A stretch of 43,544 nucleotides of DNA from an uncultured archaeon (GCA_964399605.1 CAYNRH010000001.1:1-43544), one strand, 5' to 3'. Positions 4,380-38,414 are shown, numbered from the stretch's first letter. The notes: generated by a model not told the origin, from the letters alone. Translations and numbers: made by a program.

Positions 4380-5120
4380 ATGCTTTACCTAATAGGTCTT
4401 GGGTTGTATGATGAAAAGGACATAACACAGCGCGGGATTAACGCAATAAAAAATTGCGATAATCTTTACATAGAGTCATACACTTCCAAGTGGAACGGTT
4501 TGGAAAGCCTCAGGATGATGTTGGAAAAGGAAATTATTGAAGTTAAGAGGAGCGACCTTGAGGAAAACCAGAAAAAAATTCTGGATGAGGCAAAGAGCAA
4601 AAAAGTTGGCGTTTTAATTCCTGGAGATCCGCTTGTGGCTACAACGCACATAGACCTGCTGATACAGGCAAAGAAAAATGGAATAAAAACTGTTGTGATT
4701 CATGCACCGTCAATATATTCTGCTGTTGCTGAGACAGGCCTCTTTATCTACAAGTTTGGCAAGACGACAACAATTCCTTTTGTCCAAGAGGGTTATAAGC
4801 CAGAGAGCCCCTACGACACAATAAAACAGAACAGGGAAAATGGCTTGCACACGCTTTGCCTACTTGACATAAAGGAGAGACTGATGGCGCCAAGCGAAGG
4901 GTTAAAGTACCTATTAGAGATAGAAGGCAGGAGAAAAGAGATGGTTATTTCCGAAGATGATGAAGTTATTGTTTTTTCCATGAGAGAAAGAAGCTTTATA
5001 ATTTATGGCAAAGTAAACAATATATTAAACAGGGATTTCCCTACACCGGCCGTTCTTATAATACCCGGGGAGTTACACTCAATAGAGAAGGAGGCACTTT
5101 CATGTTGGAAAACGACTTAA
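4380..5120 (+). CDS. dph5: diphthine synthase
   Basis: MLYLIGLGLYDEKDIT start, GDPLVATTH motif, 246 aa, tetrapyrrole-methylase-type layout typical of archaeal Dph5. Confidence 0.9.
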   Translation: MLYLIGLGLYDEKDITQRGINAIKNCDNLYIESYTSKWNGLESLRMMLEKEIIEVKRSDLEENQKKILDEAKSKKVGVLIPGDPLVATTHIDLLIQAKKNGIKTVVIHAPSIYSAVAETGLFIYKFGKTTTIPFVQEGYKPESPYDTIKQNRENGLHTLCLLDIKERLMAPSEGLKYLLEIEGRRKEMVISEDDEVIVFSMRERSFIIYGKVNNILNRDFPTPAVLIIPGELHSIEKEALSCWKTT

Positions 5121-8518: not shown

Positions 8519-9031
8519 ATGGCATATGGTTTTGGATTGGAAAATATGATGCAAAACAGTTTCTTTGTAATCCTACTGCCATGGCTTTTAACTTTTGCTA
8601 TTGTTTATGGAATCCTACAACATTACAAAATACCAAAAAGCCCGTCAGCAAGGGCAATAATCTCAATAGTTTTTGCATTTTTCACAATACCGGTTGCCGA
8701 ACCATTGATGACAATAATAGGAAATATGGGTGCATCTCTGGTAATTGCTATTACAGGAATTTTGTTTTTGTTGATATTATTTGAGATTACTGGAACCAGA
8801 TATGTGCCAGAAGAACCGAAAAGTGAAGAAGAAATAAAACAAAGAATAACACAAAAATATTATAAGGAATTTACCTTTGGTGTTATAGTTTTAGCTATTT
8901 TGATTTTCATAGGAGCTGGAGGGTTGCAGCTTTTAGGCATAACAATACCATCCATAAATTATCCACTATTGTTTTTCTTTGCAGTAATGGTTATAGTAAT
9001 AATATGGATGGTGACGAGTGAGAAAAAATAG
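8519..9031 (+). CDS. multi-TM membrane protein, paralogue 3
   Basis: FFVILLPWLLTFAIVYGILQHYKIP..SARAIISIVFAF...AGGLQLLGITIP...IWM. SD-start cassette AGGTGAGATAAATGGC. Confidence 0.7.
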   Translation: MAYGFGLENMMQNSFFVILLPWLLTFAIVYGILQHYKIPKSPSARAIISIVFAFFTIPVAEPLMTIIGNMGASLVIAITGILFLLILFEITGTRYVPEEPKSEEEIKQRITQKYYKEFTFGVIVLAILIFIGAGGLQLLGITIPSINYPLLFFFAVMVIVIIWMVTSEKK

Positions 9032-9039
9032 GTGATAAT

Positions 9040-9594
9040 ATGGCTATACCAATTACAACAACTGGAATGGAGAGGGTTTTTGGCACTGAGTTCTTTATAT
9101 ATGTTTTGCCGTGGCTTTTTATTTTTGCAATTGTTTATGGTGTTTTAAGCCACGTTGGCAATAAGGGGGTTCCGGAAAGCAAACCGGCAAGGGCAATAAT
9201 TGGAATGGTGCTTGCGTTCATAGTTACACCTGTTTTGGCACCATGGGTTGGAAACTTGATGGAAATGACTGGAATATTCATGGTAATAATTGCAGTACTT
9301 TTGGTATTTATAGTGCTTTTGGAAATATTGGGAATAAAAACAACAAAAACAATTACTATAAAAGATAAGGATGGAAATAAAAAAGAAGCTCTTGTACCAG
9401 TTTCAATATTTGAAAAATATGGAGTTGCGTTTGCTATTTTATTTATAATAATAGCAGCACTGGTTTTCATGGCGGCAGGTGGTTTAGAAGCAATTGGAAT
9501 TACAATACCACCTATTGTGGCTTACAACTACCCGCTAATATTCTTCCTGATATTCATAGCACTTTTAATATGGTGGATGTCTTCAGAAAGTTAA
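9040..9594 (+). CDS. multi-TM membrane protein, paralogue 4
   Basis: FFIYVLPWLFIFAIVYGVLSH...PARAIIGMVLAF...AGGLEAIGITIPP...WWM. SD-start cassette AGGTGATAATATGGC. Confidence 0.7.
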   Translation: MAIPITTTGMERVFGTEFFIYVLPWLFIFAIVYGVLSHVGNKGVPESKPARAIIGMVLAFIVTPVLAPWVGNLMEMTGIFMVIIAVLLVFIVLLEILGIKTTKTITIKDKDGNKKEALVPVSIFEKYGVAFAILFIIIAALVFMAAGGLEAIGITIPPIVAYNYPLIFFLIFIALLIWWMSSES

Positions 9595-9599
9595 ATCCT

Positions 9600-11012
9600 T
9601 TATTTTTTTAGAATTTTCCATCTTGGTCCATTTGGGCTATCTTCTAAAGCGATATTATATTCTTTTTTGAGTTTATCTCTTATTCTATCAGCCCTATCAA
9701 AGCTTTTTTCCTTCCTCAGGCGTTCGCGCTCTTCTATGAGCTTTCTGGCTTCTTCTGGAAGCTCTTCTGTCTCCTTTTTAAGAATTCCAAGAACTTCGTC
9801 AAATTGTAGCATTGTATCATATATCATTTTGGCGTCATTGGTGCTAATCTCCATGGAATCGATGAGCTTGTTTACTTCCTTGACGAAAAGAAATATTGCA
9901 GCAAGAGCACCGGGGGTGTTCAAATTATCATCCATTTCTCTTTCAAACTTGGATTTAACATCTTCTATCAACGTTATTACTTTCTTATTGTCTGATGAAT
10001 TAGATTTCCAGCTCTTAAGCTTGTCCATGAAGTCAAAAAGGTTTTCAAGAGTTTCTTCTGCCTGCTCCAGGCTTTTTATTGTGAAGTTCATTTGAGTCCT
10101 GTAATGTGCTTTAAGATACAAAAAACGGAGAGCCTTAAGGTCAAATCCCTTTTCTTCTAAATCTTTCAAGGTGTAAAAGTTTCCCTTTGACTTTGACATT
10201 TTTGTTCTGTCAACCAGAAGATGCTCACCATGTATCCAATATCGAACAAATGTTTTGCCAGTTGCTCCCTCTGATTGTGCAATTTCATTTTCATGGTGTG
10301 GGAATATCAGGTCAACCCCTCCGATGTGAATGTCTATTGTTTCTCCCAGGTAATATGTGCTCATAGCAGAACATTCAATATGCCATCCTGGCCTTCCCTT
10401 TCCCCATGGGCTCTCAAAGTAAATGCCTCTTTTCAATTCTTCAGGAGTGCTTTTCTTCCATAGGGCAAAGTCACCGGGATTCTCCTTATCATATTCATCA
10501 ACATCAACACTCGCACCTGTTTTTACATTGCTCAAATCTATTTTCGACAGCTTGCCATAACCCTTAAATTTTGAAATATCGTAGTAAACACCATCTTTCT
10601 TCTCATAGGCAAATCCCTTCTCCTCCAGTCTCTTTATCAGCTCAATCATTTGTGGAATGGTTTCAGTTGCCCTGGGATAAAGAGTCGCCCTCTTTATGTT
10701 TAGTTTGTCCAGACCTTCAAAGAATATATTTGCATATTTTTCCGTAAAATCCTTCAAGGACAACCCTTCTTCTCCTGATCTCTTAATAGTCTTGTCATCT
10801 ATGTCTGTTATATTCATCACAAATTTTACCTTGTAACCTTTATAAAGAAGATATCTATAGATTATGTCAGCTAGGAAAAAGCTTCTGAAATTCCCTATGT
10901 GAGGATAATCGTAAACAGTGGGGCCGCAAGCATACATCTTGACCTCCTTGTCGTGTAGCGGCTTAAAAACTTCCTTTTTTCTTGTTAAAGTGTTGTAAAA
11001 TTTTAGAGTCAT
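9600..11012 (-). CDS. cysS: cysteinyl-tRNA synthetase
   Basis: Class I HIGN (YPHIGNFRS) and KMSKS motifs, 470 aa, end-to-end CysRS layout. Confidence 0.95.
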   Translation of the reverse strand: MTLKFYNTLTRKKEVFKPLHDKEVKMYACGPTVYDYPHIGNFRSFFLADIIYRYLLYKGYKVKFVMNITDIDDKTIKRSGEEGLSLKDFTEKYANIFFEGLDKLNIKRATLYPRATETIPQMIELIKRLEEKGFAYEKKDGVYYDISKFKGYGKLSKIDLSNVKTGASVDVDEYDKENPGDFALWKKSTPEELKRGIYFESPWGKGRPGWHIECSAMSTYYLGETIDIHIGGVDLIFPHHENEIAQSEGATGKTFVRYWIHGEHLLVDRTKMSKSKGNFYTLKDLEEKGFDLKALRFLYLKAHYRTQMNFTIKSLEQAEETLENLFDFMDKLKSWKSNSSDNKKVITLIEDVKSKFEREMDDNLNTPGALAAIFLFVKEVNKLIDSMEISTNDAKMIYDTMLQFDEVLGILKKETEELPEEARKLIEERERLRKEKSFDRADRIRDKLKKEYNIALEDSPNGPRWKILKK

Positions 11013-11269
11013 TTTTTCTTCCCCACTATATGGAACGTATATATGATTTCAAAGAGAACAACCAAAAGAATTCCCAAATTCAGAAAAAGAAAAACAGGAT
11101 CATTTTTTAAGAAAGAATAATAAATCAGCATTAATACACCTATAGATGTTATAATACTAAATCTCAATTCTATCAAATTTTTATGAGATTTTATCTCATC
11201 CCTTAAACCAAGTATCCAGGCAAGCAGAACTAATCCGCCACCGATGACTCCTATCAAAACTCCCAACAT
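11009..11269 (-). CDS. small 3-TM membrane protein
   Basis: The track ORF starts at a TTG (11278). ATG at 11269 follows GAGGTT. SIGVLMLIYYSFLKNDPVFLFLNLGILL resembles LAB_N/PQ-loop-like small membrane domains (speculative). 4-nt overlap with the cysS start. Confidence 0.5.
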   Translation of the reverse strand: MLGVLIGVIGGGLVLLAWILGLRDEIKSHKNLIELRFSIITSIGVLMLIYYSFLKNDPVFLFLNLGILLVVLFEIIYTFHIVGKKK

Positions 11270-11295
11270 ATTTAACAACCTCTTGAACTAAATTT

Positions 11296-11525
11296 TGGAG
11301 CGGGGTCTGGGATTTTCCAACCCCGAGGAAGGGGAAGTATCCCCTTCCTAAGGGATTACTATCCCCTCTAAATTGGCAAACCAAAGGTTTGCAAATAAAG
11401 GAAAGGTAGATATTCCCATAAGGAGGGAAACCTTGGTGTCCCTCCGTAGGGTTTTGAACCCAGGTCTTCCGCTCTGCAGGCGGATGCATGAACCATTTCA
11501 GCTGCAAAGTCTCTGCCAACCCCGC
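11296..11525 (-). tRNA. tRNA-Cys(GCA) with a 140-nt insertion in the T loop, a probable 14-nt insertion in the D loop, and encoded CCA
   Basis: Minus-strand read: GCGGGGT-TG-GCAG...ATGC-A-TCCGC-CTGCAGA-GCGGA-AGAC-CTGGG-TTCAAA[140 nt]T-CCCAG-ACCCCGC-T-CCA. Acceptor (7 bp), anticodon (5 bp) and T (5 bp) stems are perfect once 11313-11452 is removed. Anticodon GCA at 11475-11477. This is the only GC-rich island in the window. Confidence 0.75.
11313..11452 (-). other. putative non-canonical tRNA intron (T-loop position about 59/60)
   Basis: Removal restores CTGGG-TTCAAAT-CCCAG. The junction is ambiguous within the AAAA present at both borders. Contains perfect hairpins GGAGGGA/TCCCTCC, GCAAACC/GGTTTGC and GGAAGGGGA/TCCCCTTCC. 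ACCC (5' border) can pair with GGGT (3' border), as in a relaxed bulge-helix-bulge. Confidence 0.6.
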
Positions 11526-11549: not shown

Positions 11550-11562
11550 CATTTAAATATAT
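11550..11562 (-). promoter_or_regulatory. candidate TATA box for tRNA-Cys
   Basis: Minus-strand ATATATTTAAAT centred about 30 nt upstream of the tRNA 5' end. Confidence 0.4.
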
Positions 11563-11588
11563 TTTTGTTTATTATACTAAATGATACT

Positions 11589-17539: not shown

Positions 17540-17767
17540 TTATTTATTATTTTGTATTATTTCGCTGTAGCCGCACTTGCCGCATGTTTTCCTGTTTTTG
17601 TGAATTGCCAAAAATGTTCCGCTGCCACACCTTGGGCAATGTTCTCCCTTTCTTTTGACCTGAGAACCGGAAACCTCATATTTTTTCCATATTTGCACCT
17701 TCTTATGTTTTGACTTGCTTTTTGGCCTTTTTCCTTTCTTCTCACCTGCGGATTTCTTTTTTCCCAT
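17540..17767 (-). CDS. rps27ae: 30S ribosomal protein S27ae (eS31)
   Basis: C4 zinc ribbon CPRCG...CGKCG after a basic N-terminus. TAATG stop/start overlap with rps24e. Confidence 0.9.
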
Positions 17768-18174
17768 TACTTTTCACCTTCTTTTTTCTCTTCAGCTTTC
17801 TTTTCTGTTTTTTCCTCAACCTTTTTTTCTTCCTTTTTCCCTTCCTCTGTTGCTTCCTCTTTCTTTTCTTCCTTTTTGGGCTCTTCTGCACTTTCTTCTT
17901 TTTTCTCTACCTTTTCCTCGGCTTTCTTTTCCTCTATTATTGGAACTTCTTTCTCTTTCCACACATAAGCAAGAATCCTTGATTGGGTGTTTCCAACTCC
18001 GGAAATTATTCTCTTGACTTCTATGTGTTTTGGCTTTATTTTTTTCTCCTTTGCCAAATATGCCTGAACAGAAGCTTTTGAAGGAGTAGACATTCCATTA
18101 TGCTCTATAATGCCAATTATCTCATTCCTCTTAAGAAGAGGATTCTCCCTTATCTCAATTATATTTATTTTCAT
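17767..18174 (-). CDS. rps24e: 30S ribosomal protein S24e with Lys/Glu-rich C-terminal extension
   Basis: [19 protein letters not shown]...[10 protein letters not shown] core, then about 50 aa of EEKK/KKEE low complexity. Confidence 0.9.
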
Positions 18175-32981: not shown

Positions 32982-33596
32982 TTATTCCTTTCCTGTCTTT
33001 TCCTTTGTTTTCTCATCTTCCTTTGGCTTTTTCTCTTCTTTAGGCTCTTCCTTTTTATCTCCCTTTTCTTCTTCTTTTTCCTCAGCTTTTTTCGCTTCCT
33101 CAACCTTTTCTTCTTGTTTTTTCTCTTCTTTTTTAGGCTCTTCCTTCTTCTCCTTCTCAACACTCTCGTTCTTTGGTTCTACTTTTTCTGGTTCTTTTTT
33201 TGTTTCTTCCTTCGCTTCTTCCTCTTTTTTCACGCCAAGTATATCCTCTATCTTCTTTGCATCTTTCTTCTTTTCAACAACTTTAACGTTAACCTGAACT
33301 ATGTCTTCGCCTATTCTGTTGCCCCGCACGGTTTTCCTTTTCTTAACTCCTTTTTTCTTGGATTTGTATCCAACACCGCCTGTCAAGAGAGCTTTTCTTC
33401 TTATCATTCCGTCAAGGTCTCTTCTCATTGGAAACCCTTCCTTGTCGCTGCCACCAGTCAACTGAAGCTTATAACCAGTTAGTCCTACTAATGAGCCGTC
33501 AAAATCCTGGCCAATACGCATACCTATGAATGTTGGCACATCTTTTTCTATCTGATAGGCTTTTCCGTTTTTATCTGATATAACTATCTTGAACAT
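32982..33596 (-). CDS. rps6e: 30S ribosomal protein S6e with an approximately 80-aa Lys/Glu-rich C-terminal extension
   Basis: MFKIVISDKNGKAYQIE...GFPMRRD...RKTVRGN core. Start taken at ATG 33596 (after GGTGGA) rather than the track's 33626. Tail [17 protein letters not shown]...KEKTGKE. Confidence 0.9.
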   Translation of the reverse strand: MFKIVISDKNGKAYQIEKDVPTFIGMRIGQDFDGSLVGLTGYKLQLTGGSDKEGFPMRRDLDGMIRRKALLTGGVGYKSKKKGVKKRKTVRGNRIGEDIVQVNVKVVEKKKDAKKIEDILGVKKEEEAKEETKKEPEKVEPKNESVEKEKKEEPKKEEKKQEEKVEEAKKAEEKEEEKGDKKEEPKEEKKPKEDEKTKEKTGKE

Positions 33597-37723: not shown

Positions 37724-38272
37724 TTATTTTTTGGATTCAGAAGACTCTTTCTTGGATGCTTCCTTTGATTCCTTCTTGGATTTTTCTTTTGGTTCTGTTT
37801 TCTTGGCCACTTTTTTTGGTTTCTCTACATCCTCTTCCTTTTTGGTTTCCTCTTTTGCCTCTTTCTCCTTCTCTTCCCTTTTCTCTTCTTTTTCGGGTTC
37901 TTTTTTCTCTACCTTTTCCTCAGCTTTCTTTTTCTCTTCTTTTCCTTTTCCAAGTATTTCATCCAATATTTTCTTAGCATCTCCGGATTTAACAATAGCA
38001 ACAGAAGCGCATCTTACATCTATGCCTGCTGCCCTTCCAAGCTCATCTTTGTTCTTTGTGTAAACATATGGTATGTTTTTTTCTTCACAAAGAGGGGGAA
38101 GGTGCATAACAACTTCAGGCGGGTCAACATCTTTTGCTATGACAACTAATTCTGCGTCGCCCTTCTCTATTGCTTTTGTGGTTTCATTTGTTCCCTTTCT
38201 AACATATCCTGTTGCTCTTGCGGTCTCCACTGCTTCCAAAATTTTGTTGTTGAGTTCATCGGATATTTCCAT
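37724..38272 (-). CDS. rpl7ae: 50S ribosomal protein L7Ae with an approximately 70-aa Lys/Glu-rich C-terminal extension
   Basis: [48 protein letters not shown] core. ATG at 38272 (the track's GTG lies inside GAGGTGA). Tail [28 protein letters not shown]... Confidence 0.9.
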
Positions 38273-38414
38273 ATTTTTCACCTCTTAAAGTATGAATTAA
38301 TTTGTATATATATTTGCAACCTATTTAAAAGTTTTGCTTCCTATTTAAATAGACTATATGCTCTTAATTTTTTCATAATAGTCTTTTTATAGCTTTGTTT
38401 TTTTTATATATTCT

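Follow-up and report, generated by a model that had tools for sequence, protein, structure and literature searches.

The DNA analysed here, referred to as the window, is a stretch of 43,544 nt from an uncultured archaeon (GCA_964399605.1, CAYNRH010000001.1:1-43544), and its minus strand contains all the parts of a tRNA-Cys(GCA) between positions 11525 and 11296. The acceptor stem (GCGGGGT/ACCCCGC) and the anticodon arm (TCCGC-CTGCAGA-GCGGA) can be read directly from the sequence as an initial annotation had described them, and the 3' end consists of the discriminator U73 followed by an encoded CCA. The T arm (CTGGG-TTCAAAT-CCCAG) is obtained only with positions 11313-11452 removed, and the helices of the tRNA are all perfect once both this insert and a second, shorter insert in the D loop have been taken out. 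The locus is the tRNA-Cys(GCA) gene of an archaeon of the Aenigmatarchaeota (DPANN), and we consider it likely that the gene is expressed and carries two protein-spliced introns of the bulge-helix-bulge (BHB) class.

Searches of the raw 43,544-nt window with ARAGORN gave no tRNA, and no Rfam match was obtained at the gathering score. A permissive Rfam search of the locus yielded a lone tRNA match below the threshold (22.3 bits, 11442-11509), which arises because the opening CCC of the large insert imitates the 3' strand of the T stem. The "inner tRNA" at 11442-11509 on the minus strand, with a pseudo T arm (CUGGG-UUCAAAA-CCCUA) taken from the start of the intron and a false acceptor stem (CUUUG/CGGAG), is probably a chance mimic. 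After deletion of 11313-11452 and 11499-11512, in contrast, ARAGORN calls a 76-nt tRNA-Cys(GCA), in agreement with the gene identity first proposed. Restoration of the cloverleaf upon removal of the insert, by which introns of the BHB class are recognized here, was obtained with ARAGORN for the gene in the window, for four orthologous tRNA-Cys genes and for five other tRNAs. No further hidden tRNA was found in a permissive Rfam search over the whole window. Although no GC-rich cluster in the window is longer than the tRNA locus, the earlier claim that it is the only GC-rich island does not hold, since several coding stretches reach a GC content of 0.56-0.61 in 70-nt windows.

The features of the locus, all on the minus strand, are as follows; structural elements of the large intron are taken from the minimum free energy (MFE) fold.

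11551..11565, minus strand: putative A/T-rich, TATA-like promoter element (AAAAATATATTTAAAT), with its centre about 31 nt upstream of tRNA position 1
11511..11525, minus strand: exon 1, tRNA positions 1-15 (acceptor 5' strand, U8 G9, D-stem 5' strand, A14 G15), of which the acceptor strand covaries with exon 3
11496..11510, minus strand: D-loop intron, most likely 15 nt (ACTTTGCAGCTGAAA), between positions 15 and 16, placed by ortholog D loops, G15:C48 and BHB scoring
11453..11495, minus strand: exon 2, positions 16-59 (rest of the D arm, GCA anticodon arm, variable loop, T-stem 5' strand, T loop TTCAAA)
11313..11452, minus strand: T-loop intron, 140 nt, between positions 59 and 60
11422..11452, minus strand: 5' module of the T-loop intron, ACCCTAC and a 7-bp hairpin (GGAGGGA...TCCCTCC)
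11319-11324, minus strand: GGGGTT, predicted to form helix h' with ACCC(T) of the 5' module
11322..11381, minus strand: 3' module of the T-loop intron, with the hairpins AGGGGAT-AGTA-ATCCCTT (11367-11350) and AGGAAGGGG-ATACTT-CCCCTTCCT (11349-11326)
11313..11317, minus strand: 3' end of the T-loop intron, GAAAA, of which GAA is predicted to pair with T54 T55 C56 (central helix H) and AA to form, with T60, a 3-nt bulge with the 3' splice site
11296..11312, minus strand: exon 3, positions 60-76 (T60, T-stem 3' strand, acceptor 3' strand, U73, CCA)
11269 or 11278 (start uncertain) to 11009, minus strand: gene for a small membrane protein of about 86-89 aa (Pfam)
11012-9600, minus strand: cysteinyl-tRNA synthetase (CysRS) gene, cysS (Pfam); the two downstream genes together span 9600..11278

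The large intron contains perfect hairpins of 7, 7 and 9 bp at 11445-11422, 11392-11376 and 11349-11326, just where the initial annotation had located them, and the start of the 3' module falls within the 3' strand of the GCAAACC hairpin. The MFE of the 140-nt insert is -64.1 kcal/mol as compared to a mean of -43.2 kcal/mol for shuffled sequences (z = -5.4), and none of 200 shuffles was as stable.

Orthologous tRNA-Cys genes

Relatives of the locus were collected by a pattern search with exon 2 in species genomes, by a profile of the small membrane protein together with contig look-ups, and by a metagenome scan; the profile search of the species genomes returned only two loci, both already known. 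Orthologous tRNA-Cys genes were identified in ten contigs (L081, L082, L085, L087, L088, L090, L092, L094, L098 and L099), while an eleventh, L093, includes the 3' end only. Most of the ten genes are split by a T-loop insert at 59/60, with lengths of 45-151 nt, and removal of this insert alone suffices for ARAGORN to call tRNA-Cys in L081, L082, L090 and L094. Because the split architecture recurs in independent assemblies, it is not due to chance, and together with the ARAGORN call after excision this bears out the earlier suggestion that the T arm forms only if 140 nt are excised near 59/60.

The orthologs differ in their intron states. The window and L098 agree in their D-loop insert and in their 140-nt T-loop intron, here called type A. 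L099 shares the flanks of the window and the first 103 nt of its intron, but the 3' end differs and the 9-bp hairpin is missing from it. In L087 and L085/L086, the exons are 100% identical to those of the window, including the D insert, and the T-loop intron (type B) has no detectable similarity to that of the window. The upstream 200 nt are 98% identical between L087 and the window, and the downstream 1.5 kb are about 93.5% identical in L087 and L085. Exon 2 is identical at all positions in L085, L087, L098 and L099; taken together, the D insert and the exons are identical in five independent assemblies with flanks that differ by up to 7%. A type B intron is also present in L081/L091, in this case without the D insert. 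The D insert is likewise lacking from L082/L092/L093, which belong to the metagenome-assembled genome (MAG) AUK256; the 5' part of their intron is unrelated to that of the window, and the last 48 nt of the conserved region in the L082 intron are 94% identical to the window sequence. Finally, the tRNA-Cys of L088/L089 is intron-less in the same gene order, and those of L090 (complete genome CP070662.1) and L094 have T-loop introns of 48 and 45 nt, respectively. Replacement of one intron by another at a single locus is thus directly observed, and the comparison suggests that the large intron turns over quickly, being replaced, extended or lost between close relatives.

The L085 intron has an additional insert of about 45 nt. 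Comparison of L085 2306-2457 with L087 335-444 shows that the extra nucleotides form two perfect hairpins inside the loop of the first hairpin of the type B intron. The introns seem to grow by the addition of such hairpin modules. Nested BHB introns were considered as an origin of the extra hairpins in L085 and rejected, as manual inspection revealed no BHB motif at the boundaries of the insert.

An alignment of six distinct spliced or intron-less tRNA-Cys sequences demonstrates that all 120 of the 120 stem cells pair. Changes on both sides were observed in five pairs, of which three are in the acceptor stem (2:71, 3:70, 7:66) and two in the T stem, and all five belong to helices that are divided by the T-loop intron, with one strand before it and the other after it. 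In controls with slid partners, 32-53% of the cells paired and no compensatory pairs were found. The covariation of the acceptor and T stems across the split halves therefore shows that the gene is functional rather than a pseudogene. A decaying and disused tRNA pseudogene, disrupted by insertions, was the alternative put forward in the initial annotation, and it would account for the failure of ARAGORN and Rfam to call the raw sequence, for a BHB motif at the window junction that is merely of a relaxed type and for an insert of twice the size of the tRNA. It is nevertheless a very improbable explanation, given the perfect helices after removal of the inserts, the five compensatory pairs that span the intron, the identity of the exons in the five assemblies with diverged flanks, and the conservation of both the promoter box and the gene order. 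Nor was an intron-less copy with these exon sequences detected in the scans of genome collections and metagenomes. The box in question, TATTTAAATGT, is located about 30 nt upstream, a distance that is kept in the L081, L082, L087 and L098 orthologs, in surroundings that have otherwise diverged, which suggests that it may function as a promoter.

Proposed splice junctions of the two introns

In the canonical archaeal motif, the 5' bulge is made up of the last two exon bases and the first intron base, the four preceding exon bases pair with intron positions L-5 to L-2, and the 3' bulge consists of the last two intron bases and the first base of the 3' exon (PMC4090602). It follows from this geometry that p-6 pairs with p+2, so that p = 59 gives 53:61, the closing pair of the T stem, in the same way as 31:39 is obtained for 37/38. 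The A run in the window makes all positions from 56/57 to 59/60 equivalent, and the junctions of L082 and L090 are ambiguous between 59/60 and 60/61; we chose 59/60 because it is the sole position common to the junctions of the window and the orthologs.

In total, 13 T-loop introns were tabulated, nine of which form four of four pairs in the central helix H (T54-R57 with L-2 to L-5), with the consensus end U-G-A-R-N-N/T60, where the slash marks the junction. The ending G-A-R-N-N/T60 is present in 11 of the 13. L090 has a strict hBHBh' motif, in which H measures 4 bp, h' measures 11 bp and both bulges are of 3 nt. For the type B introns, a fit is obtained only if the register is shifted, and it then involves a helix of 3 bp and bulges of 4 nt; bulge sizes of 1-4 nt have been reported for relaxed motifs (PMC3239211). 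The MFE fold of the window contains, in order, the T stem, a 3-nt bulge (A-A-U60), the UUC:GAA helix, a 2x1 loop and a 6-bp h' (AACCCU:GGGGUU). Pair probabilities at the junction are 0.53-0.86 (0.53-0.58 for GAA:T54-C56), and the bulge is unpaired with a probability of about 0.9 at 37 C. The T-loop intron matches the relaxed motifs (hBH/HBh') in that its 3' site is placed in the bulge A-A-U60 between the T stem and UUC:GAA. We classify the predicted junction as a relaxed hBH with a well-formed 3' site and a loose 5' site, and the 3-nt bulge flanked by two helices supports the relaxed BHB that had been suspected at the borders of the insert. The predicted spliced junction reads ...GGGTTCAAA/TCCCAG...

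It could be argued that the inserts are not spliced at all but retained in the mature tRNA as expansion segments at the elbow, where positions 59/60 face outward from the T-loop core. We know of no tRNA with such a retained expansion, and this possibility seems remote in the extreme, since the insert is freely swapped or missing among the orthologs, its ends preserve the pairing for an endonuclease site, and the L090 ortholog has a strict BHB motif.

The closest precedent for the T-loop junction is the pre-tRNA-Cys(GCA) of ARMAN-2 (Candidatus Micrarchaeum), which has an intron at 59/60 with an hBH motif (Fujishima et al. 2011, PMC3239211). In vitro, the epsilon2 EndA of ARMAN-2 cleaved canonical as well as non-canonical BHB motifs, the latter being represented in the assay by this pre-tRNA-Cys (PMC3239211). 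The two genes share the tRNA species, the superphylum (DPANN), the 59/60 site and the relaxed hBH junction, whereas the intron in the window is 140 nt long and composed of several hairpin modules, is accompanied by a second intron in the D loop and belongs to the Aenigmatarchaeota lineage. By analogy, the junction also resembles the canonical BHB at 37/38, in that a 3-nt bulge and a helix formed by the loop and the 3' end of the intron are found next to the closing pair of a stem (31:39 or 53:61); it differs in its location in the T loop, in a central helix of three Watson-Crick pairs plus a mismatch in the window, and in a 5' site without a clean 3-nt bulge.

The second insert is confined to the immediate clade of the window, being identical in the window, L098, L099, L085/L086 and L087 and absent from L081, L082, L088, L090 and L094. 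The comparison to the orthologs corroborates the presence of a D-loop insertion, as initially annotated, but we prefer other boundaries, namely 15 nt at 11496-11510 instead of 14 nt at 11499-11512. The D loops of orthologs without the insert are AGTGGTTT and AGTGGCTC. Removal of ACTTTGCAGCTGAAA (11496-11510) restores the D loop AGTGGTTC and keeps G15 opposite C48; C48 accompanies G15 in the clade of the window, while relatives with A48 have A15. Because of this homology with the ortholog D loops, the insert is most likely a 15-nt intron at 15/16, an assignment made with moderate confidence. In this model, H consists of C11:G, A12:U and G13:C, the 5' bulge of A14 G15 A, and h' of C:G and U:A with the loop UUGC. 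A hand-built fold, which is not the MFE structure, matches the relaxed motifs, with the 5' site in the bulge A14 G15 A between CAG:CUG and the 2-bp h'. The predicted junction is ...GGCAGAG/TGGTTC..., and the mature read would be GGCAGAGTGGTTC.

Exhaustive BHB scoring of D-loop excisions did not single out one solution, as the 15-nt model and the 14-nt model in the 12/13 register tie. According to the latter, the intron is either AGACTTTGCAGCTG at 13/14 or, equivalently, GAGACTTTGCAGCT at 12/13, the D loop is AAATGGTTC and the tRNA is 76 nt long, with a predicted junction of ...GGCAG/AAATGG... and a mature read of GGCAGAAATGGTTC. ARAGORN accepts the 76-nt product, and the BHB score in the 12/13 register is the same as for the 15-nt model (H 3/4, h' 2). 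However, the D loops of L081 and L082 begin with AGTGG, which the 15-nt model restores exactly and the 14-nt model only with extra base changes; furthermore, C48 goes together with G15 in this clade, and the helix H of the 14-nt model uses U7, a base of the acceptor stem. We therefore consider the 14-nt boundaries unlikely. A 9-nt excision obtained the top BHB score and was rejected, since it would leave a D loop of 14 nt and uses acceptor-stem bases.

In the splicing pathway that we propose, transcription of the precursor would be driven by the TATA-like box conserved about 30 nt upstream. GAA-AA, at the very end of the 140-nt intron, would pair with the universal T54-T55-C56; the 3' splice site would thereby come to lie in a bulge of three nucleotides (A A U60), with the T stem on one side and the short helix on the other, and the start of the intron, (A)ACCC(U), would pair with GGGGUU just upstream of GAA-AA and close the intron. 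With 53:61 taking the place of 31:39, such an arrangement would be the counterpart, in the T arm, of the canonical 37/38 site. The second intron, most likely of 15 nt at 15/16, may adopt a minimal HBh'-like motif. The splicing endonuclease EndA would then cut both introns, and a ligase of the RtcB type would join the exons to a 75-nt tRNA including CCA. Transcription, cleavage, ligation and the exact phosphates that would be cleaved are all predicted from the sequence, and the pairing potential of the junctions is observed.

Several observations weigh against an expressed gene with two spliced introns. The H helix in the window has only three of four pairs (UUC:GAA, followed by an A57xG mismatch), and its predicted probability falls to about 0.2 at 70 C. 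In the MFE fold, the 5' splice site is located at the edge of h' and not in a clean 3-nt bulge. A strict hBHBh' is thus not found in the window, where the mismatch at A57xG leaves H with three pairs and the 5' site is contained in a 2x1 or 3x2 internal loop. The fold proposed for the D-loop intron has an energy of -27.2 kcal/mol as compared to -35.4 kcal/mol for the MFE structure, and it provides no outer helix at the 3' site. No gene for EndA or RtcB was detected in a Pfam scan of all sizeable open reading frames (ORFs) in the window. The window covers only 43.5 kb, so that a second, intron-less tRNA-Cys may still be encoded elsewhere in the genome. Lastly, the 92-96% identity of the 3' module of the large intron to copies in distant lineages could reflect selection on some function.

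Modules of the large intron

A scan of the species genomes for the 3' hairpin module identified four copies, all of which are located in the T loops of tRNA genes in MAG AUK256. Nucleotides 72-131 of the intron in the window are 93% identical to the intron of a tRNA-Gly(TCC) gene (L101) and 92% identical to that of one further tRNA (L102a), while nucleotides 84-131 are 96% identical to the intron of a tRNA-Gly(CCC) gene (L103) and 94% identical to that of the AUK256 tRNA-Cys (L082). The 5' module has an identity of 95% over 20 nt to the T-loop intron of an AUK256 tRNA with three introns (L102 7614-7844). Other modules are common to the Val, Glu, His and Thr introns, and modules also recur among T-loop, D-loop and canonical introns, with all of the copies found in tRNA genes. 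No match to the 3' module was obtained in viral contigs, and no other copies of the modules were identified by BLAST in the window, which means that no second disrupted tRNA is visible there.

Nearly identical introns are thus present in tRNA genes of different identity, and the large intron belongs to a shared intron family. After removal of the 59/60 insert alone, ARAGORN calls eight tRNA genes in AUK256, including Cys and, with identities as read by us, Gly(TCC), Gly(CCC), Val, Glu and Trp; a gene with three introns, described below, is also among the eight. A T-loop insert was observed in nine of the ten AUK256 tRNA genes or gene fragments among the loci retrieved. From these sequence comparisons, the large intron appears to be a mosaic of hairpin modules that derive from a family of long T-loop introns in most of the tRNA genes seen in related Aenigmatarchaeota.

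The AUK256 tRNA at L102 7614-7844 has inserts in the D loop, the anticodon loop and the T loop; its anticodon is GTG (His) as judged by eye, and ARAGORN calls it Val, a mis-call, when only the T-loop insert is removed. The tRNA-Trp(CCA) gene on the minus strand of L101 (reverse-complement indices 4443-4768) is about 325 nt long and contains a 158-nt T-loop intron besides an intron at 37/38 with GGATGATGG and CTGA motifs. Box C/D small RNAs (sRNAs) are nested in archaeal tRNA-Trp introns, and the motifs in the 37/38 intron are consistent with such an sRNA.

The intron in the window resembles the box C/D intron of tRNA-Trp in that both are long and structured, but it lacks C and D boxes and is located at another position. 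As stated in the initial annotation, C/D box motifs are absent: neither TGATGA nor CTGA is present in 11313-11452, and no snoRNA match above the chance level was obtained, so that there is no indication of a box C/D sRNA. Likewise, group I or group II introns and small ribozymes gave no Rfam match at E <= 10 beyond the chance level. K-turn and H/ACA readings of the conserved hairpins were dropped, as their defining motifs were absent by eye. The proposal that the intron is kept for a functional RNA or a protein-binding element, released or acting in cis as a C/D-guide-like RNA or in the processing or regulation of a cysS operon, was nonetheless examined further. It could explain why nucleotides 72-131 are 92-96% identical to those of a lineage in which CysRS is only 45% identical, far above the flanking genes, why the intron is so strongly structured (z = -5.4), and why the tRNA is located directly upstream of cysS without a clear terminator. 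Yet the best Rfam scores were 16.7 and 15.7 bits (E 0.09-3.3), well below the gathering scores, and no family fits the intron. L087 and L085 combine identical exons with an entirely unrelated intron, the 9-bp hairpin is missing in L099, and L088 is intron-less in an unchanged gene order. In the conserved module, the stems are nearly identical and without compensatory changes, which fits a recent spread as well as selection. The wholesale replacement and the lack of a fitting family argue against an essential hosted RNA, which we regard as quite unlikely, and favor a rapidly turning-over and possibly mobile intron family.

Genomic context and implications

The tRNA-Cys gene is followed on the same strand by the gene for the small membrane protein, which has a weak LAB_N-like Pfam match, and by cysS, an order that is kept in L081, L082, L085-L088 and L098. 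No oligo-T run was found between the tRNA and the first ORF, and because no such terminator separates them, it is possible that the tRNA is co-transcribed with the downstream ORFs. This "cysteine" gene cluster (window 9600-11525, minus strand; L085 1294-4170; L088 1-925) is common to all close relatives. In the sister strains L085/L086, a PALP-family gene is located directly upstream of tRNA-Cys, and the reading frame upstream of tRNA-Cys in L088 has a C-terminus similar to that of the L085/L086 protein; this shared C-terminus may be cysteine-synthase-like, by impression.

Upstream of tRNA-Cys, the window contains genes for S3Ae, a RecJ/DHH protein and S15, and Pfam matches elsewhere include aIF2-gamma, aIF5B, class I LysRS, Kae1, L7Ae, S6e and S24e. 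These neighboring genes identify the organism as an archaeon, with a GC content of about 36%. The identity of CysRS is 78% to its counterpart in the Aenigmatarchaeota MAG AUK200 and 45% to that in MAG AUK256. Outside its own clade, the closest proteins to CysRS (9600-11012, minus strand) among the matches listed are from Bathyarchaeia and many bacteria, with 44-59% identity, which suggests that the history of cysS may include horizontal transfer. CysRS was tried as a probe for relatives and abandoned as a poor marker, since the best 80 matches were mostly from bacteria and Bathyarchaeia (44-59%) and did not extend to the true relatives. At 8519-9594 on the plus strand, convergent with cysS, a pair of tandem genes encodes paralogous membrane proteins of 170 and 184 aa without a Pfam match, and a gene of this type adjoins cysS also in L081, L082, L085 and L087. 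A strong purine/pyrimidine skew was noted at 17700-18000, 33000-33300 and 37800-38100. Two of these stretches represent plus-strand T/C runs within the minus-strand S24e and S6e genes and would, judging from their composition, encode Lys/Glu-rich C-terminal tails; the third, inside the L7Ae gene at 37724-38281, was flagged by the composition profile only.

Many disrupted tRNA genes have been reported from DPANN lineages with an L3-loop EndA (PMC5829648), and in our literature search no description of tRNA introns in the Aenigmatarchaeota was found. For the Thermoproteales, reviews describe large-scale intron transposition, with as many as three introns in a single tRNA at non-canonical sites and similar introns in different tRNA species of one genome, implying spread between genes (Sugahara 2008; Fujishima 2010; reviewed in PMC4090602, PMC4033280). 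The sharing of introns among the tRNA genes of AUK256 is similar to this, whereas the concentration at 59/60, the mosaics of hairpin modules and the differences between nearly identical strains at one locus are not. The lengths given for archaeal tRNA introns in review are 11-129 nt, with medians of 12-25 nt (PMC4090602, PMC4033280), as compared to 44-218 nt for the 13 T-loop introns studied here, most of which exceed 100 nt. Different intron states of one tRNA locus also coexist in natural populations at the tRNA-Thr of Caldiarchaeum subterraneum (Sugahara 2012, PMC3293823), where the variation is linked to a 1.8-kb element that encodes a recombinase (PMC3293823). In contrast, no recombinase element was found here, and one intron has been cleanly swapped for an unrelated one at the same junction. 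The T-loop intron in the window is thus of a known kind, but unusually long, modular and exchangeable.

We put forward, as a tentative idea to which we give somewhat less than even weight, that the long T-loop introns of the Aenigmatarchaeota are an actively mobile, non-autonomous element family that moves between tRNA genes and lineages. If so, the conserved 3' end (U-G-A-R-N-N) would pair with the universal T54-T55-C56-R57 of any tRNA, and each copy would therefore build its own splice site on landing at 59/60. The elements would grow by adding hairpin modules, and the window would represent a recent replacement of the type B intron, which is kept in L087, L085 and L081, by a mosaic of modules from other tRNA genes.

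The main value of the locus is as a natural system for the study of gain and turnover of BHB introns. It amounts to a natural experiment in which identical exons and nearly identical flanks are combined with unrelated introns at exactly one junction, with a close relative that is intron-less, and it addresses how protein-spliced archaeal introns that encode no mobility function are gained and spread. Since tRNA genes of this kind escape the standard tRNA finders, the tRNA complements of the Aenigmatarchaeota, as well as the completeness and codon-usage inferences for these genomes, are likely underestimated.

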